This document shows positions 7,472 to 38,442 of a stretch of 64,000 nucleotides of DNA, one piece after another. The DNA is from Candidatus Binatia bacterium (GTDB taxonomy: Bacteria > Desulfobacterota > Binatia > Bin18), in NCBI GenBank assembly GCA_965231775.1, contig OZ246888.1, positions 3,741,590 to 3,805,589 of the forward strand. Direction: 5' to 3'. Numbering within the stretch: the first letter of the stretch is position 1; each line of letters begins with the position of its first letter. The notes beneath the pieces were generated by a model, which made no database searches, was not told where the DNA came from, and worked only from the letters and a program-made list of their open reading frames with translations. Position numbers and translations under genes: made by a program.

Positions 7472-7489
7472 CCGGCTTCCTCTCCGTCA

Positions 7490-9602: not shown

Positions 9603-9692
9603 CGCTCTTCCTCCCACAGCGCCGGACCGCTTGGCCGCGGCTCACGCGTTCGCCCTCTCTTTATGCCAGGCGGACGAGAAAAAAATCAAGCA

Positions 9693-10472: not shown

Positions 10473-11305
10473 CAGGCGCTGTGGTCGCAGCCCCACTCGA
10501 TGCCATTGCGGAGCAGTTGTTCAAACGGCCGGGTATCCCATGAACCGCGAAAAACCTGAGGCGTTGTGCTCCCAGCATCGACACTCGCATCAACAAACGG
10601 CTGCATATTGCTGGTCGTTGAATGGCAGTGTCCCAGCGCAATATAGGCGACCCCCCCCCGGCCTAAGGCGCGGGAAAAACCCAGCACGCGCGTTTTTCCA
10701 TCCGCTTGCAGAGCAGAGTCCTCATCGTACACAAAGCCAAAGCCCGGAGGGGACGGGTCTTTTGCCAGCTCAGTGGTCAACAGGACCTCTGAAGCCGCCG
10801 GCTCCTGGAGTTCAATCAGATACAACTCGTCCATGACCTCAAACGAGGCAGGCAGACCCCTGGTCAGGCTATGCTGCTGATTGACCACATCAACCCGGAA
10901 CTTGCGCAGCGGCGGATGGTTCAGAAAGAAGCCGCCCAGGGTCGCGTGGTGGTCGGCCTTGACCATCTTGCGCACGCGCCGATCATCGCCGACCGGCGCA
11001 GCCTTTCCGCCGCTCGTGCCGTGCAGCCCCAGCCAACGACCGCCGTCTTCGATCCACTGCCGGAGGAAGATGTTTTGTTCTGTGTTGGGGAACGGGCCGG
11101 CGACATAGGTTATTAGCAATTGACACCCAGGCAGCCATTTGTCGATGTCGATGAAGTCGCCGCTGACCGAGGCCGTAACATTGGGCCGCTCGTGTAAAAG
11201 CTGAAGAAGCCGCAGCCGGGCGTAGTCCATATCGTGCCCAGCCGGAGAGCCCACCGGAAACCCACCGGTAATCAGGTGGACGCGAACGGGTTGGGAATTA
11301 CTCAT
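10472..11305 (-). CDS. ThuA-like (class I glutamine amidotransferase-like) protein
   Basis: The start at ATG about 11305 (MSNSQPVRVHLITGG) avoids an unlikely 47-aa leader. 'HGTSGG' and 'IALGHCHS' occur in the ThuA-like fold. Confidence 0.6.
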   Translation of the reverse strand: MSNSQPVRVHLITGGFPVGSPAGHDMDYARLRLLQLLHERPNVTASVSGDFIDIDKWLPGCQLLITYVAGPFPNTEQNIFLRQWIEDGGRWLGLHGTSGGKAAPVGDDRRVRKMVKADHHATLGGFFLNHPPLRKFRVDVVNQQHSLTRGLPASFEVMDELYLIELQEPAASEVLLTTELAKDPSPPGFGFVYDEDSALQADGKTRVLGFSRALGRGGVAYIALGHCHSTTSNMQPFVDASVDAGSTTPQVFRGSWDTRPFEQLLRNGIEWGCDHSA

Positions 11306-11494
11306 AAGACGATCTCCTTTTTCCGGGTCCTTGCCAAACCTCCCAGTAGCCGTCACCCTACCAAACCTTTTGCGAACACAACACAGCCCCTCTTTTGACG
11401 GCCTGGAAAAACCCATACTATTTCGGCGGCCGTAAAAGAGCCACACTTTCCTCGTCCAAAAGAAACAGAGAAATAGAGGAATACGAGGAGCACG

Positions 11495-12781
11495 ATGTCA
11501 ACGCAAACCATTGAGACAACCCGCTTTCTTTCTCACAACGCCGTGCGGACAATCGCGCACCGGTTCGGGACACCGGTATATGTCTACGACGAGGCGCGAC
11601 TCACGCAGGCGGCCCAAGAGGTGTTACACTTTCCAAACGCCTTCGGCCTGACCGCGCGCTACGCCATGAAGGCCCTGCCCAACGGCAATATTCTCCGTTT
11701 GTTTGACCGTTTGGGACTGCACTTTGACGCCAGCTCCGGCTTTGAGGCCGAACGGGCCATGCAGGCCGGCATCGCCGCGCATAAGATTGCCCTGACCGCC
11801 CAGGAACTCCCGCAGAACTTTCCGACTTTGCACGCCGCCGGCGTAGCCCTCAACGCCTGTTCGCTGGCGCAGTTGCGCTATTTTGGCGAACATTTTCCGG
11901 GCCAGGAACTCGGCATCCGTTTTAACCCCGGTCTCGGCTCGGGCGGGACGAACCGGACCAATGTTGGTGGCCCGGCGGCCAGTTTCGGTATTTGGTACGA
12001 AGACAGAGCCGCCGTCCAGGCCATTGTGCAACAGAATGCGCTCAAGGTCATTCGTATTCATACCCATATCGGCTCAGGCTCAGACCCCGGGGTATGGCAG
12101 CATGTGGCCGGCATGAGTATCGGCTTGTTAGAGCATTTTCCGGACGCTCATACGCTCAACCTCGGCGGTGGGCATAAGGTGGGACGGATGCGCCACGAAA
12201 CCTCAACCGACCTGCAGGAGGTCGGCCAGCCCGTGGTTCAGACCTTTGTGGCCTTTGGGGAAGCAACAGGCAGAAGAATCCAACTGGAAGTCGAGCCGGG
12301 GACATATCTGGTCGCCAATGCTGGCTGCGTGATTACCACAATCCAGGACCGGACCCGCACGGGCAAAGACGGCTATGATTTTCTCAAGATCGACAGCGGC
12401 ATGACCGAGGTGCTGCGCCCTAGCATGTATGGCGCTCAGCATCCTCTCGTTGTCGTCCCGGCAACAGCGGCAGCCGAGCAGGAGCAACGGCCGACCCTGG
12501 ACGCCATTGTTGCCGGCCACTGCTGTGAGTCTGGCGATATCCTCACGCCTTCGGCCGGCGACCCGGAAGCGCTGGAACCCCGCGCGCTCCGTGACTCCGC
12601 CATCGGCGACTATCTGGTCATTGAAGGCTCGGGCGCATATTGCTCCGGCATGAGTTCCAAAAACTACAACTCGTTTCCGGAAGCGCCGGAGGTGCTCTAC
12701 CGCGGGCCGGACCAAGAGCCCATGCTCATTCGCAAGCGGCAGACGCTGGACCAGATCATTCAGAACGAGGTGTTGGTATAA
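11495..12781 (+). CDS. PLP-dependent decarboxylase, diaminopimelate/ornithine decarboxylase family (fold III)
   Basis: 'GTPVYVYDE', the PLP-lysine context 'ARYAMKALPN', 'HIGSG', and 'GHCCESGD' are Orn/DAP/Arg decarboxylase family-2 signatures. Confidence 0.7.
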   Translation: MSTQTIETTRFLSHNAVRTIAHRFGTPVYVYDEARLTQAAQEVLHFPNAFGLTARYAMKALPNGNILRLFDRLGLHFDASSGFEAERAMQAGIAAHKIALTAQELPQNFPTLHAAGVALNACSLAQLRYFGEHFPGQELGIRFNPGLGSGGTNRTNVGGPAASFGIWYEDRAAVQAIVQQNALKVIRIHTHIGSGSDPGVWQHVAGMSIGLLEHFPDAHTLNLGGGHKVGRMRHETSTDLQEVGQPVVQTFVAFGEATGRRIQLEVEPGTYLVANAGCVITTIQDRTRTGKDGYDFLKIDSGMTEVLRPSMYGAQHPLVVVPATAAAEQEQRPTLDAIVAGHCCESGDILTPSAGDPEALEPRALRDSAIGDYLVIEGSGAYCSGMSSKNYNSFPEAPEVLYRGPDQEPMLIRKRQTLDQIIQNEVLV

Positions 12782-12800
12782 CGTAGGCGGGGCGCTGTCG

Positions 12801-13628
12801 TCAGCGTTGGTCGGCCTCCAGGTTCTTCTGTAGCGAATCGCCGATAAACGGTCGCAACCAATACGGGTTGAGAAACTCCTGTTCAATAAAACGCGGGTCG
12901 TCGCTCAGCGACGGACCGTGGTCCACCGTGGTCCAGTAGGCATAGAACTGCGTGTGCAGGAGCGGGTCGGAGATCGTAAAATCCCCCCTCTTCTCACGCT
13001 GCTTCAGCCAGGTGTGCATGGCGTCAAAGGCTTCAAGCCCGGCTTGTTGCCATAAGACCCGCCCACCGCCGTACTCCTGGTATAAATGACGCTGGAGTTT
13101 CCAGTTGGCGACCATCCAGCCGGCAAAACGTCGTCCGGGCGGTTTGAGCTGGCTATCAATCGCCTGGCGTTCGTCCTCAAGCCGTTGTCTCTCCTCCGCA
13201 GCCAGCTCCGGCTGGACCAGCGCCTGTTCAACCTCCACCCGGCGATCTTTGAGCGGATGGTCCTGGGCCTTGAGGCGTTCGTTATGCCAACCGTTAAAAT
13301 GCGCCATCGCAGTCGAGACCTCGCGCTCCGTGGGTTGGAGCTTATCCTTGTGGGCTACGCGATACTGCTGCATCACCGGGTGGCTGAACAGATTGTGCAG
13401 TTCGTTCGAGAGCGCGACGCCCCCGGTCGCCGTGAGTTGGTCTCTGTACACAGGCTGTCCCAGTACTACGCCGATCGGCTCACGCGGTGATTCTTCGGCT
13501 GGAGCGAGAACGGGCGCACTCAGCAACAGACCGAGGAGGAATAGTCTCGGCCATTGCCCCCCGGACCTCCGCTTCCCTGGCACTCCGCTTTTCATCGTCA
13601 AAGAACGTGCGGCTGTGTGATTTTTCAT
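12801..13628 (-). CDS. secreted hypothetical protein
   Basis: The N-terminal signal-like segment (RLFLLGLLLSAPVLAPAEE) has no recognisable domain. The start codon is uncertain. Confidence 0.4.
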   Translation of the reverse strand: MKNHTAARSLTMKSGVPGKRRSGGQWPRLFLLGLLLSAPVLAPAEESPREPIGVVLGQPVYRDQLTATGGVALSNELHNLFSHPVMQQYRVAHKDKLQPTEREVSTAMAHFNGWHNERLKAQDHPLKDRRVEVEQALVQPELAAEERQRLEDERQAIDSQLKPPGRRFAGWMVANWKLQRHLYQEYGGGRVLWQQAGLEAFDAMHTWLKQREKRGDFTISDPLLHTQFYAYWTTVDHGPSLSDDPRFIEQEFLNPYWLRPFIGDSLQKNLEADQR

Positions 13629-13773
13629 TGCTTGCTAACATGGCAGAAAACTTGAGGAGAGAAAACTCCGCTCGCGGTACGGATCTGTACCGGCATACCG
13701 CAGTTTTCTCATTCACTTGTGCCTGACCGCATGATAGACCTCTTTTCACACCGCTCCAGAGGAAAGGAAACGC

Positions 13774-14784
13774 GTGGCCTATCAATATACCGTCTACGGC
13801 CTGGAACTCAGCCTGTTCACCCGCAAGCTTGAAGCGGCCCTGATTTTTTATGGCGCACCGTTTGTCCACAAGCCAAAAACCCAGGCTAACCGGCAGGAGA
13901 TTGAGCACCGTTCAGGTACCCATCAAGTCCCGGTCTTACATACGCCCGAGAACTGGATGATCGGCGATACGACCCCCCTCATGATGCTGCTGGACAATCG
14001 GTATCCCGCCCGAGCGATGTTTCCTCACGGCCCGCTTGGCGTCCTCGCGCATGTCATTGAAGAATTCCTGGACGAGTGGGTGGCACGGGTGATGGTCCAT
14101 TACCGGTGGCATTATGAAGAGAGCAGCCGCTTTGCCGCCGAGCGGATTACCCGAGCGACTATGCCGGACGCGGACGAGGCAACCATTGCCGCAGCGCTCA
14201 CAAACGCGCCGATTGCAGAATGGGGAAAGCGCGCCTGTCGTGCCACCGGCACCGCTTCCGAGCAACAACAACGCGCCGCAGAGACCGAATATACCCGCAT
14301 TCTTGATGCCATAGACCAACAACTTCAGCAGACGCCCTATCTGTTAGGCAGTCGTCCGTGCGCGGTCGATACCATCGTCTTGGGCGGCCTGCGGGCGCAT
14401 ACCTATATGGACCCCGCCCCAAAGAAGCTCGTCTCTCAGTATCCTCGTATTGTGGAGTGGTGCGAGCAGGACGCAGGCCGCTGGGACGGGACTGGAGAGC
14501 TGGCGCCGTTCCCGCAATCGACTCCCTTTGCGCAAATGATACTCGCGGAAATGCCAACAACCTATAAGCCCTACATCCTGGCGAACTCCCAGGCCCAAGC
14601 CAGCGGCACGAAAGCCTTTGTTGTGACAACCTATGCAGAGGAGGTCAGCTACCTCTCCCGCCCCTATCCCGAGTTGTCCCGGCACATGCTCGTCAACCGC
14701 ATTGCGAATCAAATCAACGCAGAAGAACGCCGAACCGTCCAAGACTGGCTGGCCGCGGTCGGGCTGGCAGAATGTTTTCGCTGA
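13774..14784 (+). CDS. glutathione S-transferase-like protein (divergent)
   Basis: It has an N-terminal thioredoxin-like betaalphabeta segment with a 'HQVPVL' cis-Pro context and a C-terminal helical domain. The assignment is weak. Confidence 0.45.
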   Translation: MAYQYTVYGLELSLFTRKLEAALIFYGAPFVHKPKTQANRQEIEHRSGTHQVPVLHTPENWMIGDTTPLMMLLDNRYPARAMFPHGPLGVLAHVIEEFLDEWVARVMVHYRWHYEESSRFAAERITRATMPDADEATIAAALTNAPIAEWGKRACRATGTASEQQQRAAETEYTRILDAIDQQLQQTPYLLGSRPCAVDTIVLGGLRAHTYMDPAPKKLVSQYPRIVEWCEQDAGRWDGTGELAPFPQSTPFAQMILAEMPTTYKPYILANSQAQASGTKAFVVTTYAEEVSYLSRPYPELSRHMLVNRIANQINAEERRTVQDWLAAVGLAECFR

Positions 14785-14827
14785 GTTTTCATCGTTTGGC
14801 CTGGTCCGCTCTGAAGGAGAATTTCCC

Positions 14828-15922
14828 ATGCCCAGGAAAAAGATGTTGGTGGCGGGTGCGTCCGGCTTGGTTGGCTACGCTGCGGTCGAGTACTTCGCAC
14901 AGCAGGACGATTGGGATGTGGTTGGGGTTTCGCGTCGTATCCCCGACGGGCTCGCGGGCGCTGAGGTCATCTCGGTCGATCTGACGGATACGGCGCGCTG
15001 TGCGGAGGTCTTTGGTCGTATGTCAGACGTGACTCATCTGATCTATGCGGCGCTGTACGAAAAGCCGGGGCTGGTGGACGGCTGGTTTCAGCAAGACCAG
15101 ATGGAAACTAATCTGGCCATGCTGGATAATCTCTTCTCTCCACTCGAAGCCACCGCGCAGAACCTTCAGCACGTGTCCTTACTCCAAGGTACAAAAGCCT
15201 ATGGCGTCCATATTGAACCCTTTCCCGTTCCGGCCCGCGAACGCTGGCCGCGCCATCAACACGAGAACTTCTATTTTCTGCAAGAAGATTATTTACGTGC
15301 GCGGCAGCCCGGCAAAAACTGGCATTGGACAGTCTGGCGACCGCAGCTCATCCTGGGACAGTCGCTGGGCAGCCATATGAACGTCATTCCTGCTCTGGGA
15401 GTGTATGCGGCACTACGCCGTGAGGCCGGGCTGCCGTTATCATTTCCCGGTGGCCCGCCTTTTGTTGTCGAGGCAATTGATGCCGGCATGATTGCCCGAG
15501 CGTGCGAGTGGGCCGGGATGTCCGAGAACGCGCATAACGAAATTTTTAATATCACGAACGGCGATGTTTTTGTGTGGCAAAATGTGTGGCCGGCTATCGC
15601 TGACGCGCTAGGCATGGAGGTAGGCCCACCGGAGCCCCTGTCTCTTGCGGAAGAGATGCCCAAGCATGAAGCCGAGTGGACAGCGATTGTAAAAAAATAC
15701 GATCTACGTGCCCCCACCAGCTTGAAAGAATTTGTGGGCCAGTCCTTCATCCTGGCTGATTTTACCTTCGGCTATGGCAGCAGAAATCAGTCTCCGCCCC
15801 CCATGCTGGTGAGTACCATCAAACTGCGGCAGGCGGGCTTTCACGAATGCATGGATACGGAGGACAATTTCCGGGCGTGCTTCAAACGCTTCCAAGACGC
15901 CCGGCTATTGCCACCGCTGTAG
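14828..15922 (+). CDS. NAD(P)-dependent epimerase/dehydratase-type SDR (PRISE-like)
   Basis: The start at ATG 14828 follows AGGAGA. 'MLVAGASGLVGYAAVE' is Rossmann-like, with an atypical-SDR layout. Confidence 0.6.
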   Translation: MPRKKMLVAGASGLVGYAAVEYFAQQDDWDVVGVSRRIPDGLAGAEVISVDLTDTARCAEVFGRMSDVTHLIYAALYEKPGLVDGWFQQDQMETNLAMLDNLFSPLEATAQNLQHVSLLQGTKAYGVHIEPFPVPARERWPRHQHENFYFLQEDYLRARQPGKNWHWTVWRPQLILGQSLGSHMNVIPALGVYAALRREAGLPLSFPGGPPFVVEAIDAGMIARACEWAGMSENAHNEIFNITNGDVFVWQNVWPAIADALGMEVGPPEPLSLAEEMPKHEAEWTAIVKKYDLRAPTSLKEFVGQSFILADFTFGYGSRNQSPPPMLVSTIKLRQAGFHECMDTEDNFRACFKRFQDARLLPPL

Positions 15923-15969
15923 AATTGAGACATACAGGGTGAAGCAATTCGGAATACAGGAGATATCAC

Positions 15970-16254
15970 ATGTCAGCATACATGATCGTTCAGGCAGAGA
16001 TTACGAATCCCGAGAAGTTTCCCGAATACCAAAAACTTGCTCTCCCTGCCGTGCAGAAATACAAGGGTAAGATTCTCGGTCGGGGAGCACCGGACACAGT
16101 CGAGGGCCAATGGGCTGCCCCACTCGCCCTCATTATCGAGTTTGAGTCGGTCGAAGTCGCGAAGGACTTCTTCAATTCTCCGGAGTATACCGCCGCCCGC
16201 GAGGCGCGTGCGAACACTGCCAATTTCGTCATGTCTATTATTCCGGGCGCGTAG
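15970..16254 (+). CDS. DUF1330 domain protein
   Basis: 94 aa. 'MIVQAEITNPEKFPEYQKLALPAVQKYKGKIL' is characteristic of DUF1330, and this is the second copy in the window. Confidence 0.65.
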   Translation: MSAYMIVQAEITNPEKFPEYQKLALPAVQKYKGKILGRGAPDTVEGQWAAPLALIIEFESVEVAKDFFNSPEYTAAREARANTANFVMSIIPGA

Positions 16255-16297
16255 TAAACCAACGCGCAGGGTCGGGTCGCTCTGGCCCGCCCCTGCT

Positions 16298-16912
16298 TTA
16301 TTCTTCCTTTTTCGGCACCGAGGCCTGAAAGGCTGGGCGTTCTCTCAGCCGGTCGTAATACTGCATCGCCGTGGGGAAGGCGTCAAAGCTGAGGAACTGA
16401 TCTCCCAGGTAGATACTATAACCGACGTTCACATCGGCGGCGGAAAATCCACTGGTGAGTAAGTAGTCCCGATCTTTGAGGTGGTTATCCAACACCTCAA
16501 CCGCCTTTTCCAATCGACGCGATTCCAATTTCTGAACAATGGGCGAACGTTGTTCTTCGGGAATAAAGACCGACTGCTGGACTAGGCTGGCACCATGAAC
16601 GGCGACGGTTTCGGCGTAGTGTATCCACTGCAACCATTCATATCGCTCCGGATGATCCGGGCCGCGACCAAGCCTGCCCGCGTCGTATTTTTCGCATAAA
16701 TACTGTGCGATCGCGCCCGACTCGAAAATCGTTTGCCCCGCGTCAACCAGACAGGGAACCCGGCCGAGCGGATGGATCGCGAGATACTCAGGCGCACGCA
16801 GCACCTTGAGGTCAAAGGACATCTCAACCAGTTCAAACTCAACACCGAGTTCATGCAACAGCCACACAGAACGCGTCGAACGCGCGCCGGGGACATGGTA
16901 GAGCGTAATCAT
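16298..16912 (-). CDS. glutathione S-transferase
   Basis: 'MITLYHVPGARSTRSVWLLHELG...HPLGRVPCLVD...ESGAIAQYL' is a canonical GST N-terminal domain. Confidence 0.75.
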   Translation of the reverse strand: MITLYHVPGARSTRSVWLLHELGVEFELVEMSFDLKVLRAPEYLAIHPLGRVPCLVDAGQTIFESGAIAQYLCEKYDAGRLGRGPDHPERYEWLQWIHYAETVAVHGASLVQQSVFIPEEQRSPIVQKLESRRLEKAVEVLDNHLKDRDYLLTSGFSAADVNVGYSIYLGDQFLSFDAFPTAMQYYDRLRERPAFQASVPKKEE

Positions 16913-17084
16913 TTCTCCTCCTTCATATAAAAGCAGCCTGTGTTGAGCCTACGATGATATAGGTAGCAGGTAGGCCGCGTTCTGAAAGGAGAGGTAACGC
17001 GGAAGGGAATAATTTTCAGGATGGTAAAGCTGTTGACAGCGACCGCAGCCTTGCTTATGCCCTATTCCAAAAAGGAGCCTCCGT

Positions 17085-18212
17085 ATGTCAATAGAAGTAA
17101 CGGGCGGTTATGTCTCTGCCGACGGCCACGTTGTTGAGCCGGCCAACCTGTGGACAACCAGGATGGACAAACGCTTTCGCGACCGGGCGCCGCGGGTCGA
17201 GTCGCGCCCGGACGCCGACTATTATGTGATTGACGGCCTGGCACCCCTCCCGGTGGGTCTCGAAGGCGTCATGATAGAAGATAAAATTGCCGGAGCAATC
17301 ACTTCTGCTCTCGGACATCGGCACGCCGACACACGGCCCGGAGCGTGGGACCCGCAGGCGCGTTTGGCCGATCAGGACTTGGATCATATCCAGGCCGAGG
17401 TGATTTACCCCGGCATGTTGGGCCTGCACTTCTTTTATATTCGTGACGCAGCATACCAACGAGCAGTCATGCGGGTGTATAACGACTGGCTGAGCGAGTT
17501 CTGCGCGACCGCCCCGAACCGACTCTTAGGCGCTGGATTCTTACCCTTGCGCGGACCGATTGAATGGGCCTGCGAAGAAGCTGAGCGGGTAGCCAAGAAA
17601 GGGCTCCGTTCCGTATCCATTCCAACTGAGGTTGAGGAACGCCCGTACGCCCATCCAGACTATGCGCCACTGTGGGCGACGCTACAGGATCTGAACCTGC
17701 CGATTTCTGCCCACGCCGGGACAGGCACGGGAGAGGAGTTGCTGGTCAAGTTCGAGCGGATTGGCTTTGGCGTGGGACTCGTTGACGGCAAGGTCGGTAT
17801 GACCATGCGGGCCATGGCCGATCTGATTTGGAGTGCCGTCCCACAACGCTATCCCACACTCCGCTTTGTTATTGTCGAGGGCGGAGTCGGCTGGATTGCC
17901 TCCGTGCTGACCTATATGGATCACTGGTGGCAGGATCATCGGCGTTGGATGGAGCCTCGGCTCGAGGCGGCTCCAAGCACCTATTTTCGGCGTCAGTTCT
18001 GGGCCACTTTTGAAGATGATCGGGCCGGAATCCTGACCCGCGAAATGCTTGGCATTGATCGGCTCATGTGGGGTGCGGACTATCCGCATACAGAGGGGAC
18101 CTTTCCCTACTCCCAGAAACAGATTGACAAAGACTTTGCCGGGGTGCCCGAGGCGGAGGTCTATCAAATGGTGGCCGGCAACGCGGCGCGGCTGTACGGC
18201 CTGGACATCTGA
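17085..18212 (+). CDS. amidohydrolase-2 family metal-dependent hydrolase
   Basis: 'VSADGHVVEP' is an H-x-H-type start, with 'WGADYPH' near the C-terminus. It is paralogous to 3264, 30916, 37285 and 53448. Confidence 0.75.
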   Translation: MSIEVTGGYVSADGHVVEPANLWTTRMDKRFRDRAPRVESRPDADYYVIDGLAPLPVGLEGVMIEDKIAGAITSALGHRHADTRPGAWDPQARLADQDLDHIQAEVIYPGMLGLHFFYIRDAAYQRAVMRVYNDWLSEFCATAPNRLLGAGFLPLRGPIEWACEEAERVAKKGLRSVSIPTEVEERPYAHPDYAPLWATLQDLNLPISAHAGTGTGEELLVKFERIGFGVGLVDGKVGMTMRAMADLIWSAVPQRYPTLRFVIVEGGVGWIASVLTYMDHWWQDHRRWMEPRLEAAPSTYFRRQFWATFEDDRAGILTREMLGIDRLMWGADYPHTEGTFPYSQKQIDKDFAGVPEAEVYQMVAGNAARLYGLDI

Positions 18213-18223
18213 ACCGCAACGGC

Positions 18224-19063
18224 TCAATCTTCTTTCAGAAACAGGCCCTCCATCAACTGTGATGCCAAGGCGGTCATCGGCAGCGCGGCCCCAACGTCAT
18301 GGCCGACGGTCACCGCCAGCGAGATGTCTTTATAGCCGACTTTCGCCATGCCCGCGGGCCCACCAGGATAGTCTACGGCGAGGTCACGCAGCAGCTCCCA
18401 ATTCCGAGCGGCCCAGCTATCGCCCGAACTGGCCCTGATGACCTCAAGCATCTTTTTCGGCTCGATTCCGGCCAGCCGAGCGAGCCGCAGGCCCTCGCGC
18501 GTACTGTGTTGATTGACAATCACCATGAGGTTGTTCGCGATCTTGGCCACCTCACCCATCCCCACGTCACCGACGTGAAAGAGCGTCTGACCAATAACGT
18601 CAAACACCGGACGGCAGGTCTCCACCAGGGCGGCCTCCCCACCGATCATGATGGAGAGGGTTCCGGCCTGGGCGCCGGACTCCGCTCCGCTCACACAGGC
18701 ATCCAGGACACCGACGCCTTTCTCTTTGGCCGCCGCCGCGATCCGCTGGCAGGTTTTGGGATGAACGGTACTATGAATCACAATAATGGAGCCCGGACGG
18801 GCTGCGGCTAACACCCCAGTGCCGGCTGTACCAAAAACAACTGCTTCGACCTGCGCATCATCGACCACAATAGTCTCGATAATGTCACACTGTTCCCCGA
18901 CCTCTTGCGCCGAGCGCGCCGCCGTGGCCCCGAGCTTTTCGAGCTCCTGCATGGGCTCAGGACGAATATCATACACCGTCAGGTTAAATCCGGCCTTGAC
19001 CAGATTCGTGGCCATAGGCTTCCCCATAGCGCCCAGACCGATAAAGCCAATCTTCTTATCCAT
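18224..19063 (-). CDS. NAD(P)-dependent 3-hydroxyisobutyrate dehydrogenase-family oxidoreductase
   Basis: 'KIGFIGLGAMGKPMATNL' is an N-terminal Rossmann motif, and 'GDVGMGEVAKIANN' is an HIBADH-family catalytic-region pattern. Confidence 0.75.
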   Translation of the reverse strand: MDKKIGFIGLGAMGKPMATNLVKAGFNLTVYDIRPEPMQELEKLGATAARSAQEVGEQCDIIETIVVDDAQVEAVVFGTAGTGVLAAARPGSIIVIHSTVHPKTCQRIAAAAKEKGVGVLDACVSGAESGAQAGTLSIMIGGEAALVETCRPVFDVIGQTLFHVGDVGMGEVAKIANNLMVIVNQHSTREGLRLARLAGIEPKKMLEVIRASSGDSWAARNWELLRDLAVDYPGGPAGMAKVGYKDISLAVTVGHDVGAALPMTALASQLMEGLFLKED

Positions 19064-19219
19064 ATACGCCCTCCTTTGAGATGCGTGCGGTAGTGTACAC
19101 GGGTTCGTCTTTCATAAACTATTCCGGTCCTGGCGTCACGAGACCAGAGATACTGAAAAGTTCCCCTTGCTTCCCCACCCTCGGAAGAGGTACACACAGG
19201 CTGAAAAGGAGGGAGTGTT

Positions 19220-19798
19220 ATGGCGCATGTCAGTCCGGTCCCATTTGAGCATATCGACCCTGAGGTTCAGCAGATCATGCAGACCTATGACAAGGAGTAT
19301 GGCGGCTCGGCGTTCTTGCAGGCGTTCGCCCATGCTCCCGAGGTCTTCAAGTCTTTCGCCAACTATTACTTCCCGCTCATCTTCGAGACCCGCGGCAGCA
19401 TCGATATGCAGCTGACCGAGTTGGTGCGCCTGAAGGTTGCGGAGCGCAACGACTGCGCCCTGTGAATCAACGGGCGCGTTGCTTTGGCAAAGCAACAAGG
19501 TCTGACGGAAGAACAAATCGGGGAGCTGTCAATCTATGCTGACAGCACGATTCTCACCCCGCGCGAAAGGGCTGCCGTCCGCTATGCCGACGTGTTGGCC
19601 GGAGATCATACCCAGGCATCACCAGAGCTGTTTGACGAACTGCGCCAGCACTTTACCGAGCCGGAGATCATAGACCTCGGGTTTCGGATTACGGCTTTTG
19701 TCGGCTATGGGCGTTTTATTCGCGCGCTCGGCTTAGAGAGAGGCGGCGTGTGTCCGCTGTCGGAGGCGCATACCAACGGGGCTGAGCAGGTCGCCTGA
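19220..19798 (+). CDS. AhpD-like / carboxymuconolactone decarboxylase-family protein with in-frame UGA (candidate selenoprotein)
   Basis: Two same-frame ORFs (19220-19465 and 19484-19798) are separated only by TGA 19463-19465. The joined protein aligns to the CMD/AhpD core, and the TGA falls on the second Cys of the C-x-x-C motif (ERNDCAL-TGA-INGRVALAKQQG). A stem-loop follows 12 nt downstream. Confidence 0.6.
19478..19496 (+). promoter_or_regulatory. SECIS-like stem-loop downstream of in-frame UGA
   Basis: GTTGCTTTGGCAAAGCAAC has a 7-9 bp perfect stem with a G-containing apical loop (UGGCA). The loop lies about 20-25 nt 3' of the UGA. Confidence 0.5.
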
Positions 19799-19817
19799 CT
19801 CGGGCCCGCGGCCCATG

Positions 19818-20681
19818 CTAGGCGTCTGTCTCAGACTGCATCGCCCGGCGCGCCGACCGATAGCCGCGTTGGGCGAGAGAAAATTCCAAGGCTGGTGAGA
19901 GGCGACTGATCCACCACAACAGCCTCCACCAGCCCGGCACGATGATCAGCGCTTTGTTCCGAGCAAGCGCGTCCAACACTTTTTCAGCAAACACAGCCGG
20001 ATCCATGGGCCGGTATTGCCGGATGAATTTTTCCTGGACCTCCGGCGGCATGGGCTGCAACTGCTTGCCGTATTTCCCGCCGTACAGGATGGGCGTCCGA
20101 ATAAACCCAGGGCAGAGCACACTGACGCGGACACCGTAGGGCGCGGCTTCAACCCGGAGGGATTTGGAAAGACCGACCACCGCATGTTTTGTGGTCGCAT
20201 AGCTGACAGCCGCTGGCATGGGCAGCAGACCGGCCATGGAAGCGGTATTGACAATATGGCCGTAGCCCTGGCTGAGCATAACCGGATAGGCCGCCTGTAC
20301 CCCGTTGACCACACCGTGCAGGTTGACGTTCAGGACACTGTCCCAGTCCTCAATCTGACAGACCCGTACCTCTCCTCCGATCGCAATGCCGGCATTGTTG
20401 AACATATAGTCCAGCCGACCCTGATCTTGGGCCGTCGCCCGGACGAGTTGGTCTACCGCGGCGAAGTCTGTGACATCCAGTTCGACCGCGGACGCTTGAC
20501 CCCCGCTTTCCCGGATGCCGGCCGCGACCTCTTGGGCAAGCACTATCTGACGGTCGGCTAAGATGACACACGCCCCACGCCGGGCCAGCGCCTCACTCAA
20601 CGCGCGCCCAATACCCGAGGCCCCACCGGTCATAATCGCCACCGCGCCGTCAAAGATGCGAAGGGTGTTGTCGTGTTCCAT
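19818..20681 (-). CDS. SDR family oxidoreductase
   Basis: I chose start MEHDNT. It has 'VAIMTGGASGIGRALSEALA' and the 'YATTKHAVVGL' YxxxK motif. Confidence 0.7.
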   Translation of the reverse strand: MEHDNTLRIFDGAVAIMTGGASGIGRALSEALARRGACVILADRQIVLAQEVAAGIRESGGQASAVELDVTDFAAVDQLVRATAQDQGRLDYMFNNAGIAIGGEVRVCQIEDWDSVLNVNLHGVVNGVQAAYPVMLSQGYGHIVNTASMAGLLPMPAAVSYATTKHAVVGLSKSLRVEAAPYGVRVSVLCPGFIRTPILYGGKYGKQLQPMPPEVQEKFIRQYRPMDPAVFAEKVLDALARNKALIIVPGWWRLLWWISRLSPALEFSLAQRGYRSARRAMQSETDA

Positions 20682-30915: not shown

Positions 30916-32073
30916 ATGGCATACGCAACCGGACGCATATTTTTTGACGCAGACAGCCATATTATGGAGTTGCCGGACTTTCTGACGGCTAACGCGGACC
31001 GTGATGTCGCCGACCAGCTTCCCCCGTTTAATTTTGAAGCCGCAGGGGTGCTCGCTCAGCATGTGAGCCAGTACGTCAACAACGGTCGTCCCGAACAAGA
31101 AGCGCAGAAATTGCGCGACCTGGGCGACCGCTTGATTAGCGGTCCCAAGGGCTATGACGCGCTCGGCGCGTTTGACGCATCCGAACGGACGGATGCGCTC
31201 GACCGCTTGGGCTTTGCCAAACAGTTTGTCTTCTCCTCGCTGAGCACCTCCGTGTTGTTTGACCCAAACGTTGCTCCCGACATTGCCTATGGCGGCTGTC
31301 GGGCGCATAACCGCTCCATGGCGGAATTCTGTGCGGACGAGCGTCTGGTCGGCGTGGGCCTCCTCCCCATTGACGATGTGGAGCGGTCGATTACAGACCT
31401 CGACTATGCGGTGAGTCTTGGGCTGGAAGCCATATGGATTCCCCATCGCTTAGCCAACGGGCATTCGCCCGGTCACACCGACCTCGATCCCCTCTGGGCT
31501 CGCTTTGTTGAACATCAGGTGCCGTTCCTCCTGCACGTGGGCGGGGCCGCGCTCAAAGTCGAGCCAGGCTGGCTCGATAACGGCCGTCCGATTCCCAAGG
31601 ACTGGCTCGGCGGCGGTGAGAACATCCGCAGTAAAGACATGATGGGCCTGCATCATCTGCCCGAGCAGTTCCTGTCCACGATGGTGCTGGACGGCGTGCT
31701 GGAGCGCTTTCCCGAACTGCGCGGTGGGGTCATCGAACTCGGTGCCGGTTGGGTGCCGTCCATGCTGGACCGTCTTGATCTGGTCGCCGGCATCTGGAGT
31801 CGGAGCGAGCCTTTACTCAAAGACTTGCAGCGCACACCTAGCCAGCAAATTATCGATCAGGTCCGCTTCACGCCGTTTGTGTTCGAGGATGTAGGGGCCA
31901 TTATCAATGCCTCTGACCTGCGCCTCTATATGTTCTCCAGCGACTACCCACATCCCGAGGGCGGTCGTGACCCCCTGGGACGTTTCGGTCGGTCATTGGA
32001 AGGACAGAACGCAGAGACCTTGGATCGGTTCTATACGCAGAACTTTGCGGACCTGATGGGGATGAGCGCGTAA
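30916..32073 (+). CDS. amidohydrolase-2 family metal-dependent hydrolase
   Basis: 'FFDADSHIMELPDF' is the N-terminal motif, with 'FSSDYPHPEG' near the C-terminus. Confidence 0.75.
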   Translation: MAYATGRIFFDADSHIMELPDFLTANADRDVADQLPPFNFEAAGVLAQHVSQYVNNGRPEQEAQKLRDLGDRLISGPKGYDALGAFDASERTDALDRLGFAKQFVFSSLSTSVLFDPNVAPDIAYGGCRAHNRSMAEFCADERLVGVGLLPIDDVERSITDLDYAVSLGLEAIWIPHRLANGHSPGHTDLDPLWARFVEHQVPFLLHVGGAALKVEPGWLDNGRPIPKDWLGGGENIRSKDMMGLHHLPEQFLSTMVLDGVLERFPELRGGVIELGAGWVPSMLDRLDLVAGIWSRSEPLLKDLQRTPSQQIIDQVRFTPFVFEDVGAIINASDLRLYMFSSDYPHPEGGRDPLGRFGRSLEGQNAETLDRFYTQNFADLMGMSA

Positions 32074-32320
32074 CGCCTCATTCACGGCATAGGGTGGGTT
32101 TTATCGACCCACCCTACTCTCGGAGGGAGTCCCGTGAGACCCCCTCCTCCTTCAACCCGAAGAGCTGACGCAGAGTAAAAAAACGTTCAGTTCTTCGACT
32201 TCATTCCAGTCGTCAAGGCCAGCGCTGTTTCTCTCCGATTGGCCCACAAAACTGTCAGGTGAAAGTCTGCCTCCTGAGGGCCAGAGGAGTAAATTACCTG
32301 ATTTTCTCCGCCCCATATTA

Positions 32321-32330
32321 TTATTTAACT
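32321..32330. repeat. 10-bp direct repeat TTATTTAACT, left copy flanking the low-GC island
   Basis: An identical 10-mer recurs at about 35565-35574 on the other side of the Fic-OLD gene pair. Confidence 0.4.
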
Positions 32331-32547
32331 ATCTGTTTTTACTCAGAAAACAAAATATGCTTGACATACTGTCAGTTTTACACACATACTGTAAGTATAT
32401 CCCAATTAAAGCACGATTTAAAAAGTGCTTGTCGTTCCTATCCACACGTGGAGTCTACAAATTTCCTCCCCCCCTGGAGTCCGGGAGTCCCCCCTCTCGG
32501 GCTCCCCTTCCTTTTTCGTCATATACACCCGTTTGCTAAATCAGCTT

Positions 32548-34269
32548 TCAAGCATTCCAGGATTTTATACGCTCGACGATTTCCCTCATCTGCTCTCCCC
32601 AATCAAATCGCCCTGCCATGAGGTCCTTTGTCATGTGTGGAGCGCTCTGGATAGCCAAGCGCATCTTATCAAAGTGCTTTCGACTCAGGCGCACTTCGAT
32701 ATACGACGATGTTTCGTTTCGGGGAAAGAAGGACTCATACTGCTCAGGGTCGGGCAGCGACGGCAAGTCTAAGGCTTTCTCAAGAACAGAGCCGGGAAGG
32801 TAATTCTCAATTTCCCTAGCGGTGGTTATCCAAATATGCGCACCGGGTATGTTCTCGACTTCCATGCGAATCCTCAACACCCTGACCTTTAGAGGAGAAT
32901 CCTCGGAAGCGCGGTCTCCGTCACACATAACAACGATGTTCGGATTCACCCGGAACAAATTCGCAAGCTCGGTTTCTTTCTCGGAAGGCTGAAATTCGAT
33001 CTGCGCCAAAAGCGCTCCGCCATAGAAGGCGCATTGATAGTCACGCCCCTCTCGAAGAGCGCCTTCGCTATAGAGTTGAATCCAGCGATTAAGATACGCA
33101 CGGTCCGAAGGCCCCTCCACCCAAACGATGCCGTTTGCCTGAAGCAAATCCGACGGCTTTGCACCTAACTCGGAGACGACTCCAAGGCGATCAAAATGCG
33201 CGGAAACCGTTGTTGTGCGAGCAGTCTCGCCATCATGAGTAACATGGATGATCTGCGCATCCTCCGACATTCCGAAAAGGTCGAGGGCCGTGCTTGAATG
33301 AGTCGTCAGAAAGATCGAGGCTTTTTCGTTAAGAGCGTAATCTTCAAGATACTGAAAAAGTCGTCGTAAGAGTGCCGGGTGAAGATTGTTTTCAAGTTCC
33401 TCAAACGCGAATACGAATTGGGACTTCTCTTTGTTCTCAACTTTGGGAATAACCAATAGGTTCAGCAGCACCAAAAGAACAGTCTTCAGACCACTTCCCG
33501 ATTTGCTGAGTGGAATTAGCCCCTTCTTCTCCTCGCCAAGGTAGACCTCCCAATGGTTTCTTGGTCCAGGTGCTTTTTCATCGTCATGAGATTTTATCTG
33601 GATCCCCGAAAACTTCCCGTCGTCTCTAAAGATCGAATTCAGTACCCCCAGAAGATCATGCTGGATAACCTCACTCGGGTACTGAGGGTTCACACTAGTT
33701 ATGAAACGCCTCATTATATTGGAGGCCCCACTCCCGTCGTGGCCGAGTGCTAGTTCGAGTTCTGGTAGCTCGGTCTTAATGTCGCGATCAGCAAGAAGTC
33801 TGCGGAATGACTTCCCGCTGAGATAGTGAGTTGGGTGACTCACCACCCTTTCAATTGCTGAAATCCTCGCGTTGGTCGAGCGCTCACCAAAAGATGACTC
33901 GAATGTGAAGCCGTCGGGAAAACCCACGTTGTTCGCTGTATACCCATTTGCTTCAATTTCCCACGTTATCTTAGTATCGACAAAATGTTTTCCGTGATCA
34001 TGCCAGTGATTCCTTTCAAGTTCACTGCCTCTTACATGGGCGCCAAACTGCCTTCCCAGAGACACCTCGTCTAACACGCCACGGCATCGATATTGCCAAC
34101 CACGATTGCCGAGTTCGCCTTGGCTTAATGCTTCAACCAAATCCAGTAGATGTGATTTTCCAGAGTTATTCCGTCCGATGATGACGTTGATCGGCTTAAC
34201 AGTATCGAAACCAGCCCACTCTTTTTGAAAACAGAGATGTCCCTTGAAGTATACGGAGTCAGCTTTCAC
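32548..34269 (-). CDS. OLD-family ATP-dependent endonuclease (ABC ATPase + C-terminal TOPRIM)
   Basis: 573 aa. Walker A 'GRNNSGKS', signature-like 'LSKSGSGLKTV', Walker B/D-loop 'FVFAFEELENNLHP', and H-loop 'LTTHS'. The C-terminal TOPRIM has 'IVWVEGPSDRAYL' (Glu) and 'VVMCDGDRA' (DxD). Local GC is clearly below the flanks. Confidence 0.7.
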   Translation of the reverse strand: MKADSVYFKGHLCFQKEWAGFDTVKPINVIIGRNNSGKSHLLDLVEALSQGELGNRGWQYRCRGVLDEVSLGRQFGAHVRGSELERNHWHDHGKHFVDTKITWEIEANGYTANNVGFPDGFTFESSFGERSTNARISAIERVVSHPTHYLSGKSFRRLLADRDIKTELPELELALGHDGSGASNIMRRFITSVNPQYPSEVIQHDLLGVLNSIFRDDGKFSGIQIKSHDDEKAPGPRNHWEVYLGEEKKGLIPLSKSGSGLKTVLLVLLNLLVIPKVENKEKSQFVFAFEELENNLHPALLRRLFQYLEDYALNEKASIFLTTHSSTALDLFGMSEDAQIIHVTHDGETARTTTVSAHFDRLGVVSELGAKPSDLLQANGIVWVEGPSDRAYLNRWIQLYSEGALREGRDYQCAFYGGALLAQIEFQPSEKETELANLFRVNPNIVVMCDGDRASEDSPLKVRVLRIRMEVENIPGAHIWITTAREIENYLPGSVLEKALDLPSLPDPEQYESFFPRNETSSYIEVRLSRKHFDKMRLAIQSAPHMTKDLMAGRFDWGEQMREIVERIKSWNA

Positions 34270-34333
34270 TCTGAGTGTCCTCCCGCACGTCCAGCTTACA
34301 ATTCAACGTGTTGGTGATGAACAGCACCGGTTA

Positions 34334-35500
34334 TCACGGCACTTCGGTTCCTTCATTGATGATAGAAAGATACCTGTCGTAAACGAACACTCGGCCGCGG
34401 CGTTTACCGGTAATCTCACGCGCAACTCCATTCTGGACGAGTAGTTCCATTGCCTTAGAAGCCGTTGCAAAGGAAAGCTGCGTACTGCTACACGCTGCGG
34501 ACAATGAGAGAATCGGCCGTGCCTTGAGTGCATCGTGTATGCGGAGCGCCGACCCGGCCCGTCGGCCTTCGGTTGTCTCGATTCGGCTGCGGTCGTCCTG
34601 AAACATGTGGGCGAGACGTTGGGCAGTCGAGACCGCACTGGTGGCAGTCAGGCGCACGCCTTCGAGGAAGAAGGCAAGCCAAGACTCCCAGTCCCCTGTC
34701 TGGCGCACCTGCTTAAGCAGCTCATAGTAGGTGGCGCGGTTCTGCTTGAAATACAGACTCAGATACAAAAGTGGCTGGTGGAGTACATCAGCGTGGCATA
34801 ACAGAAGGGTTACGAGCAATCGTCCTACACGCCCGTTTCCGTCAAGGAAAGGGTGAATGGTCTCGAACTGCACATGCGCAAGACCGGCACGAAACAGCAC
34901 AGGGAGTCCGTCTTCCTCGGCGTGCAGGAAACGCTCAAACCTCGCCAGGCAGTCAGGTACGGCTGTATGCGGAGGCGGGACAAAGACGGCATTACCGGGG
35001 CGGGTACCGCCGATCCAGTTCTGTGAACGGCGGAACTCGCCAGGGGTTTTATCGTCCCCCCGCCCACGTGATAGCAGCACGCCGTGAATCTCACGGAGTA
35101 AGCGATTTGACAGCGGGAAGTTCTCCCGCAGGCGGCGCAATCCGTGGTTGAGCGCCGCTACGTAGTTCGAGACTTCGACCACATCATCGAACGGAACTCC
35201 AGGCGCTTCGTCCAACTCGAAAAGCAAGAGGTCGGACAGCGATGACTGTGTTCCCTCTATCTGAGAGGAGAGTACCGCTTCCTTCCGCACATACGCGTAG
35301 AGAAAAAGTGCCTCATCCGGCAGAAGGGTCGAGACACTATCTAACCGGCCCAAGGCAAGCACCGCTGATTCAAGGGCCTGCTGCAAAGGGCCGTCCAGAA
35401 CCAGCGCTGGGTTTGGCGGGAGCGGTGCCGGAATGAAGGCTCTGACCTGCTCACCTCCGACGCTCGTCACCTCATATATGCCAATCTCTCCGCGTCGCAT
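34334..35500 (-). CDS. Fic-family protein (Fic_N + Fic core HPFLDGNGRVGR + C-terminal winged helix), class II with N-terminal inhibitory SxxxEG motif
   Basis: It has the perfect Fic motif HPFxDGNGRxxR. The N-terminal 'SSQIEGTQ' matches the [ST]xxxE[GN] autoinhibition motif. The C-terminal 'ITGKRRGRVFVYDRYL' is wHTH-like. It lies 64 bp upstream of, and co-directional with, the OLD gene. Confidence 0.8.
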   Translation of the reverse strand: MRRGEIGIYEVTSVGGEQVRAFIPAPLPPNPALVLDGPLQQALESAVLALGRLDSVSTLLPDEALFLYAYVRKEAVLSSQIEGTQSSLSDLLLFELDEAPGVPFDDVVEVSNYVAALNHGLRRLRENFPLSNRLLREIHGVLLSRGRGDDKTPGEFRRSQNWIGGTRPGNAVFVPPPHTAVPDCLARFERFLHAEEDGLPVLFRAGLAHVQFETIHPFLDGNGRVGRLLVTLLLCHADVLHQPLLYLSLYFKQNRATYYELLKQVRQTGDWESWLAFFLEGVRLTATSAVSTAQRLAHMFQDDRSRIETTEGRRAGSALRIHDALKARPILSLSAACSSTQLSFATASKAMELLVQNGVAREITGKRRGRVFVYDRYLSIINEGTEVP

Positions 35501-35507
35501 AATAGCA

Positions 35508-35550
35508 GACGTTTATCTTACTTTTGTCGGACGTTTATTTTACTTTTCTC
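35508..35550 (-). promoter_or_regulatory. tandem ~21-bp direct repeats in the Fic upstream region (putative promoter/operator)
   Basis: GACGTTTATCTTACTTTTGTCG is followed by GACGTTTATTTTACTTTTCTC, 8-50 nt upstream of the Fic ATG. Each copy carries a -10-like TAAGAT or TAAAAT on the coding strand. Confidence 0.4.
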
Positions 35551-35564
35551 AATAACGCGTTTCG

Positions 35565-35574
35565 TTATTTAACT
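35565..35574. repeat. 10-bp direct repeat TTATTTAACT, right copy flanking the low-GC island
   Basis: It matches 32321-32330, and the two copies bracket about 3.25 kb. Confidence 0.4.
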
Positions 35575-35727
35575 TTAATAGCTAAAACTAAAATAACAAG
35601 GGCAGCTACCAGCTCATTCTTCGATTGAAATTTAATACAGCCTCCGAATACGATGTACCGGGTTTTCTTGAACCACGGTTCGGAGTACAGAGGAAAGCGC
35701 CAGAAAACTTAGTAAGGAGGAGAGCAT

Positions 35728-37284: not shown

Positions 37285-38442
37285 CTACAGACCGTAGACC
37301 TGCGCCGCGTTCTGGCCGATGACCTTCTGCCGCGTGGTGTCGGACATGGGCTCAACCAGCTCGGCCAGCTCGGTCATATAGTTGTCCGGATGGTCGGGGT
37401 GCGGAAAGTCCGAGGCCCAGAAGAATTTGTCGGCGCCCACAAAATCCACCACATGCCCGAAGGCTTTCTCGTCGGGATCGCCGGAAATCCAGCAGTTGCG
37501 ATAAAAATAATAGCTGGGTTTTTCTTTGAGCCGGACGGTATCGCCCAAGGGGCTGTCAAACACCGCGTCCATACGATTGAGCAGATAGCCGGCCCAGCCC
37601 GCGCCCGATTCCAGCACAACCACTTTGATCTTGGGGAAACGCTCAAACAATCCGTACTGGAACATCGCCGTAAACGCCTGGAGCGGTCCCTGCGCGCCGT
37701 GCACATTATAATGCCACAGCGCCCATTTCTGCATATCCTTGAAGCGTTGGTGCACCCGCTTGGAAGGTGGCTCACCGCTCGGGTGGATGCCGACCGGTAC
37801 ATCGAGTTCCTGGGCCTTGGCCCAGAACGGGTCATAGTCCGGATGGGCGTGAGATTTATTGGTTGGCGTAAACGGCACGAAGAAGGCACCCTTGGCCCCG
37901 GCGCGCACGGCCCGCTCCAATTCCTGGGCCGCCACATTCCCATCTCCCATTGAGATATGGGCAATCGGGAGCAGCCGTCCATCGGAGTCGGAACAGAAAT
38001 CAACCACCCAGCGGTTATACGCCTCGGCGTAGGCCGCCTGGAGTTCCAGGCTTTCCAGCTCTTCGGTTTCCCATAAGAGGCCGATGCTGGGGTAGATGAT
38101 GGCTTTCTCCAAGCCCTCCTGGTCCATGCGTGCCAGCCGCTCTTTGGGATACATCGAGCCAAAGGGCGCTTCGCCCACATAGGTCCGGTCCGGATGGGGG
38201 GCAGTTTCTTCTTCCGATTTCTTTCCCATCGCCCCGAACTGGGCCAGTTGTCCCGGCTGGGAATACTTCGAGGGGCGCCCATCCAGTTCCAGGACCTCCA
38301 GCCCATCCTCATTGGTACGCAGGCGGATGGTCCGGTCCTTGTATCTCGGATCAATATATTTTTCCCAGGTATCAGGTGGCTCAAGGATATGTCCGTCGGC
38401 ATCAACCGTCCCGCTATAGGGAAAATTTCCGTTTGCCGCCAT
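37285..38442 (-). CDS. amidohydrolase-2 family metal-dependent hydrolase
   Basis: 'VDADGHILEPPD' is the N-terminal motif, with 'WASDFPHPD' near the C-terminus. Confidence 0.75.
   Translation of the reverse strand: MAANGNFPYSGTVDADGHILEPPDTWEKYIDPRYKDRTIRLRTNEDGLEVLELDGRPSKYSQPGQLAQFGAMGKKSEEETAPHPDRTYVGEAPFGSMYPKERLARMDQEGLEKAIIYPSIGLLWETEELESLELQAAYAEAYNRWVVDFCSDSDGRLLPIAHISMGDGNVAAQELERAVRAGAKGAFFVPFTPTNKSHAHPDYDPFWAKAQELDVPVGIHPSGEPPSKRVHQRFKDMQKWALWHYNVHGAQGPLQAFTAMFQYGLFERFPKIKVVVLESGAGWAGYLLNRMDAVFDSPLGDTVRLKEKPSYYFYRNCWISGDPDEKAFGHVVDFVGADKFFWASDFPHPDHPDNYMTELAELVEPMSDTTRQKVIGQNAAQVYGL

Follow-up and report, generated by a model that had tools for sequence, protein, structure and literature searches.

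The open reading frame (ORF) at positions 32548-34269, on the minus strand of a 64-kb stretch of a Candidatus Binatia bacterium genome (contig OZ246888.1, positions 3,741,590 to 3,805,589; hereafter the window), encodes what its motifs and profile matches identify as an OLD-family protein, an ABC-type ATPase joined to a TOPRIM nuclease domain with the catalytic motifs intact. Sequence comparison assigns it to clade U7 of the published OLD phylogeny, not to Class 1. We consider it likely that the protein works as an ATP-regulated two-metal TOPRIM nuclease and serves as a single-gene anti-phage effector. Phage defence makes wide use of OLD-family nucleases, among which the single-gene forms are the least understood, and clade U7 has been drawn on a tree and never studied. 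The locus supplies a residue-level map of the likely U7 active sites together with a natural comparison, a chromosomal site that carries a full type I restriction-modification (R-M) island in one genome and only a Fic gene and the OLD gene in another. U7 is thus a tractable candidate for learning the triggers and substrates of single-gene OLD proteins. The finding overturns nothing known, as the window protein is a new member of a recognised, uncharacterised clade.

An intact OLD-family gene

The ORF begins with GTG and encodes 573 aa, the stop codon lying within the interval. It is a real gene, since it has >4,000 homologues and a search with only its C-terminal 219 residues returns 2,664 cluster representatives out of 1.84 billion. 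The best 120 homologues are full-length (~575 aa) and 65-81% identical, and the C-terminal domain closes proteins of 550-600 aa in almost all of its top 150 matches. The GC content of the whole window reaches its minimum at 32-34 kb (0.494, versus ~0.59 elsewhere). A previous reading of the locus, made by inspection of the letters and hereafter called the sequence-only reading, had described the product as a standalone Class 1 OLD nuclease with all catalytic residues in place. The motifs that it quoted are all present exactly in the translation: GRNNSGKS at residues 32-39, LSKSGSGLK at 254-262, FVFAFEELENNLHP at 285-298, TTHS at 322-325, VWVEGPSDRAYL at 382-393 and VVMCDGDRASED at 446-457. It gave no strand for the gene and missed the candidate catalytic positions E486, E488 and K535. 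All conservation figures given here are based on a family alignment of 78 sequences with 31-58% identity to the query; across it the catalytic residues are invariant or at least 90% conserved, which bears out the description of the catalytic set as intact.

The family assignment likewise holds in profile and structure searches, where the best matches are GajA, the retron-Eco8 OLD nuclease and TsOLD, and not the SMC or RecF ATPases that lack a nuclease domain. The family profile matches these enzymes in the PDB with E-values of 1.2e-11 (GajA), 1.7e-11 (Eco8) and 8e-9 (TsOLD, 6p74), and the best Foldseek matches in the PDB, to GajA and Eco8 OLD, extend over ~600-690 aligned columns. A phmmer search of the PDB with the single OLD sequence returned nothing relevant. 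Among the viral structures of BFVD, Foldseek found only weak matches to giant-virus 'ATP-dependent endonuclease' and generic ABC proteins, and a search of a phage collection gave one weak partial match only, hence no sign of a phage-borne family.

The ATPase half

Profile-profile alignment (hhalign) against a P2 Old family alignment of 49 sequences matches 360 columns with 96.3% probability (E=1.9e-9). It pairs K38 of the window protein with K37 of P2 Old, E290-E291 with D299-E300, H297 with H306 and H324 with H332. K37, D299, H306 and H332 of P2 Old are all required in vivo, as are E398 and E402 of its nuclease half, and P2 Old killing is lost on mutating Walker A, Walker B, D-loop or H-loop residues (PMC7049728). 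The invariant positions of the family alignment include G32, N34, G37, K38, G258, E290, E291, N294, H297, P298, H324 and S325. The Walker A Lys, the Walker B acidic pair and the D-loop and H-loop His residues that define the ABC-type ATPase of the OLD family are therefore all in place. The Walker B Asp is replaced by Glu (E290), like E276 of T. scotoductus OLD. A helical segment is inserted in the ATPase at about residues 125-220, the place of the TsOLD dimerisation domain.

The TOPRIM half and the helical tail

Five lines of evidence support the reading of the C-terminal half as a TOPRIM domain, with sequence profiles and a structural model pointing the same way. The GajA profile alignment crosses the ATPase-TOPRIM junction and aligns aNgiiWvEGPSDriY with AERVLLIEGPSEKIL. 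In the hhalign comparison with the P2 Old family, E385 aligns with the metal-A residue E398 and D389 with the metal-B residue E402, so that the acidic residues do map to TOPRIM metal-binding positions, as the sequence-only reading had proposed for this Glu and for the DxD. Among 40 isolated C-terminal domains of the family, 32 favour PF20469, OLD-like_TOPRIM (best E=2.6e-5), and the other recurring matches (DUF4435, DUF3226, Toprim and DUF4276) all belong to the TOPRIM clan. One family member covers PF20469 end to end (positions 3-67/67), with 25.1 bits against a gathering threshold of 23.2, and its match stops exactly on a D-S-D that occupies the D450/D452 column. The PADLOC GajA model aligns to residues 272-457, covering E385 and the DxD.

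The AlphaFold2 (AF2) model, built on the diverse alignment, has a mean predicted local distance difference test score (pLDDT) of 91.7 and a predicted template modelling score of 0.87; an earlier shallow alignment (at least 65% identity) had given a C-terminal pLDDT of 30-55, and that model was discarded. The predicted elements run in the order strand 381-384, helix 387-400, strand 411-415, loop 419-436, strand 445-449, helix 462-472 and strand 478-481, followed by helices up to residue 572. This is a beta-alpha-beta-beta-alpha-beta core with four strands, in which strand 1 leads into E385 and strand 3 into D450-G-D452, the signature of the TOPRIM fold in the OLD family. The loop at residues 419-436 (about 32962-33015), between strands 2 and 3, is the sole low-confidence segment of the model (pLDDT <50) and varies more in length across the family alignment than any other part.

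The published order of OLD catalytic residues is E-x3-(D/E), DxD, (S/T/D)xE and then K/R (PMC7049728). The conserved C-terminal residues E385, D389, D450, D452, E486, E488 and K535 keep this order; E385, D450, D452, E488 and K535 are invariant, and D389 and E486 are at least 90% conserved. In the model E486-I-E488 sits just after strand 4 and K535 opens a helix at residues 535-545.

Clade U7 within the OLD phylogeny

The published phylogeny of OLD proteins distinguishes Classes 1-4, a new Class 5 and further uncharacterised clades, among which U7 is "previously uncharacterized" and "dominated by diverse bacterial sequences", with no function assigned (PMC12796447). We placed the family by a motif search of the sequences in Dataset EV1 of that study, from which the RefSeq accessions of cultured family members are absent. 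The motifs WVEGPS, EGPSDR and ELENNLHP lead to entries labelled U7, the exceptions being a variant form, FVEGPSDR, that occurs in clade U1, and Class 1 entries with a generic Walker A match. The window protein aligns with the U7 entry MCH9051860.1 at 36% identity over the full 399 residues available for that entry (BLASTP, E=2e-85), as against a 17% local match over 159 aa to a Class 1 entry (E=6e-4). The U7 entries have in common with the window protein the signature motifs FEELENNLHP and WVEGPSDR, the length and the architecture; it differs from them in no respect of kind, and is a new member from a Binatia-like genome.

The Class 1 label of the sequence-only reading has to be given up on these grounds, and on the layout of the C-terminal half. 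Likeness to Class 1 (P2 Old, TsOLD 6p74, Vc OLD, YbjD) does exist: a single polypeptide unites ATPase and TOPRIM without an obligatory partner gene, and K38, E290, H297, H324, E385 and D389 align with P2 Old catalytic residues. However, U7 is found in defence islands and Class 1 apart from defence genes. TsOLD has no C-terminal helical domain, and its R487 (P2 equivalent K550) lies 7 residues after E480 (PMC7049728). The U7 family has no conserved K/R near the corresponding position, E488+7; its invariant Lys is K535, at +47 from E488, within an ~85-aa helical tail that is absent in TsOLD. This is nearer to the Class 2 layout, in which K562 of Bp OLD lies 54 residues past E508 (PMC7049728), and the catalytic-site Lys of U7 may likewise come from the C-terminal helical region. 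On this evidence U7 combines a Class-1-like autonomy with a Class-2-like helical tail and Lys.

GajA (8j4t, 8sm3, 8u7i), the best PDB match by profile and by Foldseek, shares EGPS(D/E) in identical register, but identity is ~14%, the clade is separate, and no GajB/UvrD helicase adjoins the gene. A Gabija (Class 2) system was rejected accordingly: a UvrD helicase occurs among 1/75 downstream neighbours and not in the window, where the downstream neighbour is an amidohydrolase gene on the opposite strand. A Class 3 retron effector was also rejected, as there is no reverse transcriptase among the top neighbour families and no Rfam match in 28-40 kb; NCBIfam retron_eff_Eco8 scores 33 bits on the window protein against a cut-off of 250. 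PARIS (Class 4) resembles U7 in pairing an AAA_15/AAA_21-type ABC ATPase with a TOPRIM-clan nuclease and in its thematic link to restriction systems. It is split into AriA and AriB, whereas U7 is one fused ORF; AriA is only a weak PDB match (2e-4), and DUF4435 appears weakly in 4/40 C-termini compared with 32/40 for PF20469, so PARIS was rejected as well.

Genomic neighbourhoods of the relatives

We fetched 79 loci with OLD relatives and made a clean recount of their neighbours over 78, with a single profile round, the anchor proteins excluded and a range of 10 kb. The loci span Binatia, Latescibacterota, Verrucomicrobiota, Planctomycetota, Gemmatimonadota, Xanthomonadaceae and Methanothrix; the nearest relatives of the window protein come from metagenome-assembled genomes of Candidatus Binatia. 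In an unbiased clustering of the neighbours, the families that recur most include HsdS, HsdR and Fic; the remaining recurrent ones are ordinary housekeeping. Type I R-M genes lie within 10 kb in 18/78 loci (23%), divided by identity to the query into 14/36 at ≥60%, 3/22 at 45-60% and 1/20 at <45%. On a rough estimate, a random gene would be expected within 10 kb of a type I operon in ~1% of cases. In most of the 18 loci the OLD gene shares the strand of the hsd genes and follows hsdS or hsdM, precedes hsdR, or does both. Many U7 relatives are inserted between hsdS and hsdR, which recalls PrrC and RloC. PrrC/RloC-type genes are embedded in type I R-M loci, but PrrC, an anticodon nuclease, has a nuclease domain of another kind. 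These proteins are unrelated to U7, and the U7 copy in the window persists without R-M genes.

The immediate neighbours are rich in defence and mobile functions (methylases, Schlafen/AlbA, TIR, AIPR, HNH, integrases and transposases), and no partner family is conserved among 145 of them. Fic is found in 7/78 loci. Distant relatives on plasmids are lone genes. The word 'standalone' in the sequence-only reading therefore holds in part: it agrees with the missing partner and the lone plasmid genes, but leaves out a SoFic-type gene 64 bp upstream and the probable origin of the pair in a type I R-M island. In ~6/78 loci (L030, L038, L043, L054, L070 and L084) the OLD-like gene falls into two ORFs or is interrupted, the foreign stretch in L043 measuring ~1.1 kb; a minority of family copies may be pseudogenes, or these may be assembly frameshifts.

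A probable remnant of a type I R-M island

The Fic and OLD genes occupy a short low-GC insert between amidohydrolase and LLM-oxidoreductase genes. No Hsd gene is present anywhere in the 64 kb, and the insert is not marked by a tRNA, an integrase or repeats at its flanks. The orthologous site in another Binatia genome (locus L007, OZ243979.1, positions 2618-20310) corresponds to window positions 32078-35714 and holds a 17.7-kb defence island where the window has 3.6 kb. The flanks are common to both in blastn comparison, with 90.5% DNA identity for the LLM oxidoreductase and 92.2% for the amidohydrolase. The L007 island reads HsdM (two ORFs), Fic, a hypothetical protein, a ThsB-like TIR protein and a Y1-transposase-like protein, and continues with HsdS, OLD (U7), DarT, a macrodomain protein, an AAA_21 ATPase, DUF4276 and HsdR (two ORFs). 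DarT and the macrodomain protein make a DarTG-like pair, and the splitting of HsdM and HsdR reflects either decay or frameshifts of long-read assembly.

Three segments of this island are missing from the window and from a further Binatia relative, L006: HsdM; the TIR/transposase-like/HsdS segment; and the DarTG/AAA_21-DUF4276/HsdR segment. The window Fic is 89%, 85% and 78% identical to the R-M-embedded Fic of L007, L053 and L002, respectively, and these identities indicate that the Fic-OLD pair of the window and the embedded versions have a common ancestry. The more divergent L002 has the embedded order too, which makes loss in the window lineage the more parsimonious direction, a polarity that we infer from the comparison. 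The Fic and OLD genes of the window are, as the two sites compare, the probable remnant of a type I R-M defence island.

Both genes in the window are still under purifying selection. The ratio of non-synonymous to synonymous divergence (dN/dS) of OLD is 0.24 between two R-M-less genomes and 0.26-0.30 among embedded copies, next to 0.10-0.17 for Fic and 0.06-0.11 for the flanking genes. The constraint on OLD in genomes without R-M genes argues for autonomy rather than R-M dependence, and the occurrence of a full island and a Fic-OLD remnant at the same site argues that OLD works without the R-M enzyme; the OLD gene is probably autonomous. Its dS is nearly the same in comparison with each of the four Binatia relatives L006, L007, L009 and L053 (0.45-0.50). 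The flanking genes (0.21-0.35), and Fic in the closest pair (0.27), have lower values, a pattern suggestive of allelic exchange or gene conversion that acts on OLD independently of the chromosome around it.

Proposed mechanism and alternative explanations

By analogy with the solved OLD enzymes we infer nuclease activity, the metal assignment, ATP gating and a defence role for U7 OLD. The protein would oligomerise through the segment inserted in its ATPase, and binding or hydrolysis of ATP would gate the TOPRIM site. Nucleic acid would be cut there by two-metal catalysis, with metal A held by E385, D450 and D452, metal B by D389, E486 and E488, and the transition state stabilised by K535 of the helical tail. 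Vc OLD and GajA nick DNA, whereas P2 Old and AriB cut tRNA; U7 OLD may act in either of these ways. The predicted role is that of an autonomous abortive-infection-type effector against phages, carried as cargo of defence islands and especially inside type I R-M operons.

The association with type I operons can also be read as dependence, with U7 OLD as a guard that fires when a phage disables type I restriction, after the manner of PrrC or PARIS. PrrC is held latent by EcoprrI. PARIS, a Class 4 OLD system, takes its name from its induction by anti-restriction proteins, with Ocr as the trigger. The same-strand position between or next to hsdS and hsdR, the Hsd association among relatives of at least 60% identity and the putative ancestral Binatia arrangement HsdM-Fic-...-HsdS-OLD-...-HsdR all fit such a guard. 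We nevertheless regard it as unlikely: 60/78 loci have no Hsd gene within 10 kb, the window OLD is intact with dN/dS unchanged although its 64 kb hold none, and a range of unrelated defence genes (DarTG, TIR, AAA_21-DUF4276 and Fic) use the same R-M slot, so that embedding may reflect only a hotspot for cargo. It is more improbable still that Fic and OLD make up a two-gene system, in which Fic modifies or regulates OLD, or OLD is the antitoxin or partner of a toxic Fic. The two genes lie on the same strand, 64 bp apart, behind a single upstream repeat/promoter region, the pair survived the loss of the other island genes in both the window and L006, Fic recurs in several loci as counted above, and the studied SoFic system has a small antitoxin gene downstream of SoFic. 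But Fic is absent from 71/78 loci, and HsdS and other genes separate it from OLD in 4/5 related loci with a clear Fic homologue. The Fic gene moreover matches the PADLOC SoFic model (PDLC03963) along its full length (residues 18-382, E=2e-117), and the divergence patterns of the two genes differ, with an OLD dS of 0.45-0.50 versus a Fic dS of 0.27-0.68.

Several results weigh against an active TOPRIM nuclease in defence. The 60 loci without R-M genes limit the island link to part of the family. Pfam gives no TOPRIM match on the full-length protein, and the match of its isolated C-terminus to PF20469 is below threshold (E=0.28-0.29). A C-terminal-only profile matches no solved TOPRIM in the PDB by hidden Markov model, and C-terminal-only hhalign against the P2 Old family is not significant (E=0.11); because such searches gave no TOPRIM, the DxD was mapped through Pfam transitivity and topology. 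Among relatives, the TOPRIM of YbjD is dispensable for its phenotypes, and the function of Cran1 is not defence and depends on the ATPase and not the nuclease. The YbjD and Cran1 cases and the sub-threshold PF20469 match agree with an ATPase-driven function, either binding and sensing or a housekeeping task like that of Cran1, in which the TOPRIM domain would be structural or dispensable. We hold this to be very improbable, as the seven candidate catalytic residues stay invariant or ≥90% conserved even where overall identity falls to 31%, a pattern unexpected for a purely structural domain; the patchy spread across phyla at 65-80% identity, the low GC content and the defence-island contexts speak against housekeeping. 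An autonomous, ATP-regulated nuclease effector thus remains the reading that we prefer.

A bolder proposal, which we regard as unlikely, is that U7 forms a distinct OLD class specialised as cargo of type I R-M operons, a back-up that, like PARIS and PrrC, senses interference by phages with restriction, for example by DNA-mimic anti-restriction proteins. If so, the window would represent a natural 'orphaned' state, in which the guard, together with Fic, outlived the R-M system that it guarded, and U7 OLD could also sense something independent of HsdMSR.

The Fic gene and flanking sequence

The coordinates of the features are collected in Table 1. The Fic gene, transcribed in the same direction, probably forms one transcription unit with OLD. 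SoFic acts as an AMPylating toxin of the abortive-infection type. On the window Fic the NCBIfam SoFic model reaches 153 bits, far below its 550-bit equivalog cut-off, and the protein is by this score SoFic-like rather than an equivalog. The 64-bp gap 3' of Fic leaves no room for a small antitoxin ORF like AS1.

Table 1. Positions of the OLD gene, its domains and motifs, and neighbouring elements in the window
Feature	Position	Strand	Basis
OLD-family (clade U7) ATPase-TOPRIM gene	32548..34269	-	ORF listing, homologue searches, clade match
Shine-Dalgarno-like GGGAGGA, 8 nt 5' of GTG	34278..34284	-	read directly from sequence
N-terminal ABC-type ATPase region, residues 1-357	33199..34269	-	Pfam AAA_15/AAA_21; AF2 pLDDT >90; hhalign to P2 Old
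Walker A GRNNSGKS (K38 ~ P2 Old K37)	34153..34176	-	translation, family alignment, hhalign
ABC-signature-like LSKSGSGLK	33484..33510	-	G258 invariant; S255, S259, G260 ≥90% conserved
Walker B / D-loop FVFAFEELENNLHP	33376..33417	-	E290 ~ P2 D299, E291 putative catalytic Glu, H297 ~ P2 H306 (D-loop)
H-loop TTHS (H324 ~ P2 H332)	33295..33306	-	family alignment, hhalign
TOPRIM core (predicted), residues 379-490	32800..33135	-	AF2 model; PF20469 matches in relatives
VEGPSDR: E385 (putative metal A Glu), D389 (putative metal B acidic, +4)	33100..33120	-	aligned to GajA LIEGPSEK and P2 E398/E402
D450-G-D452, TOPRIM DxD (putative metal A), right after strand 3	32914..32922	-	invariant; topology; PF20469 end column
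E486-I-E488, candidate metal-B pair ~ Ts S478/E480, P2 D541/E543	32806..32814	-	order and putative role after PMC7049728
K535, invariant Lys, candidate equivalent of Bp OLD K562 / P2 K550	32665..32667	-	family alignment, AF2; role by analogy
C-terminal helical tail (predicted), residues 491-573	32551..32799	-	AF2; absent from Class 1 TsOLD
SoFic-type Fic/AMPylase gene, 388 aa, HPFLDGNGR	34334..35500	-	Pfam Fic_N+Fic; PADLOC SoFic E=2e-117
Tandem 21-nt direct repeat, 22-nt spacing, just 5' of Fic start	35508..35550		repeat search
3.6-kb low-GC insert between amidohydrolase and LLM-oxidoreductase genes	32074..35727		GC scan, blastn vs L007

The two copies of the tandem repeat (35508-35528 and 35530-35550, GACGTTTATCTTACTTTTGTC and GACGTTTATTTTACTTTTCTC) lie in an AT-rich stretch and possibly act as an operator of the Fic-OLD transcription unit; the repeat is not conserved in L007, where HsdM precedes Fic. 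At the other end, the 470-bp spacer downstream of OLD has no homology to L007. It contains a GC-rich hairpin with a 12-bp stem (32476-32505), 43 nt 3' of the OLD stop, which looks like a terminator for the opposite direction, since a T-run follows on the + strand only. The motif GGGACTCCC recurs ~370 nt away (32476-32505 and 32100-32160), and ACAGTATGT recurs twice around 32370-32400. The region is bracketed by two Amidohydro_2 genes, at 30916-32073 (+) and 37285-38442 (-), both of 385 aa, and also has genes for an F420-dependent LLM oxidoreductase and a beta-lactamase-fold esterase. The flanking neighbourhood is housekeeping or catabolic in character and unrelated to defence.

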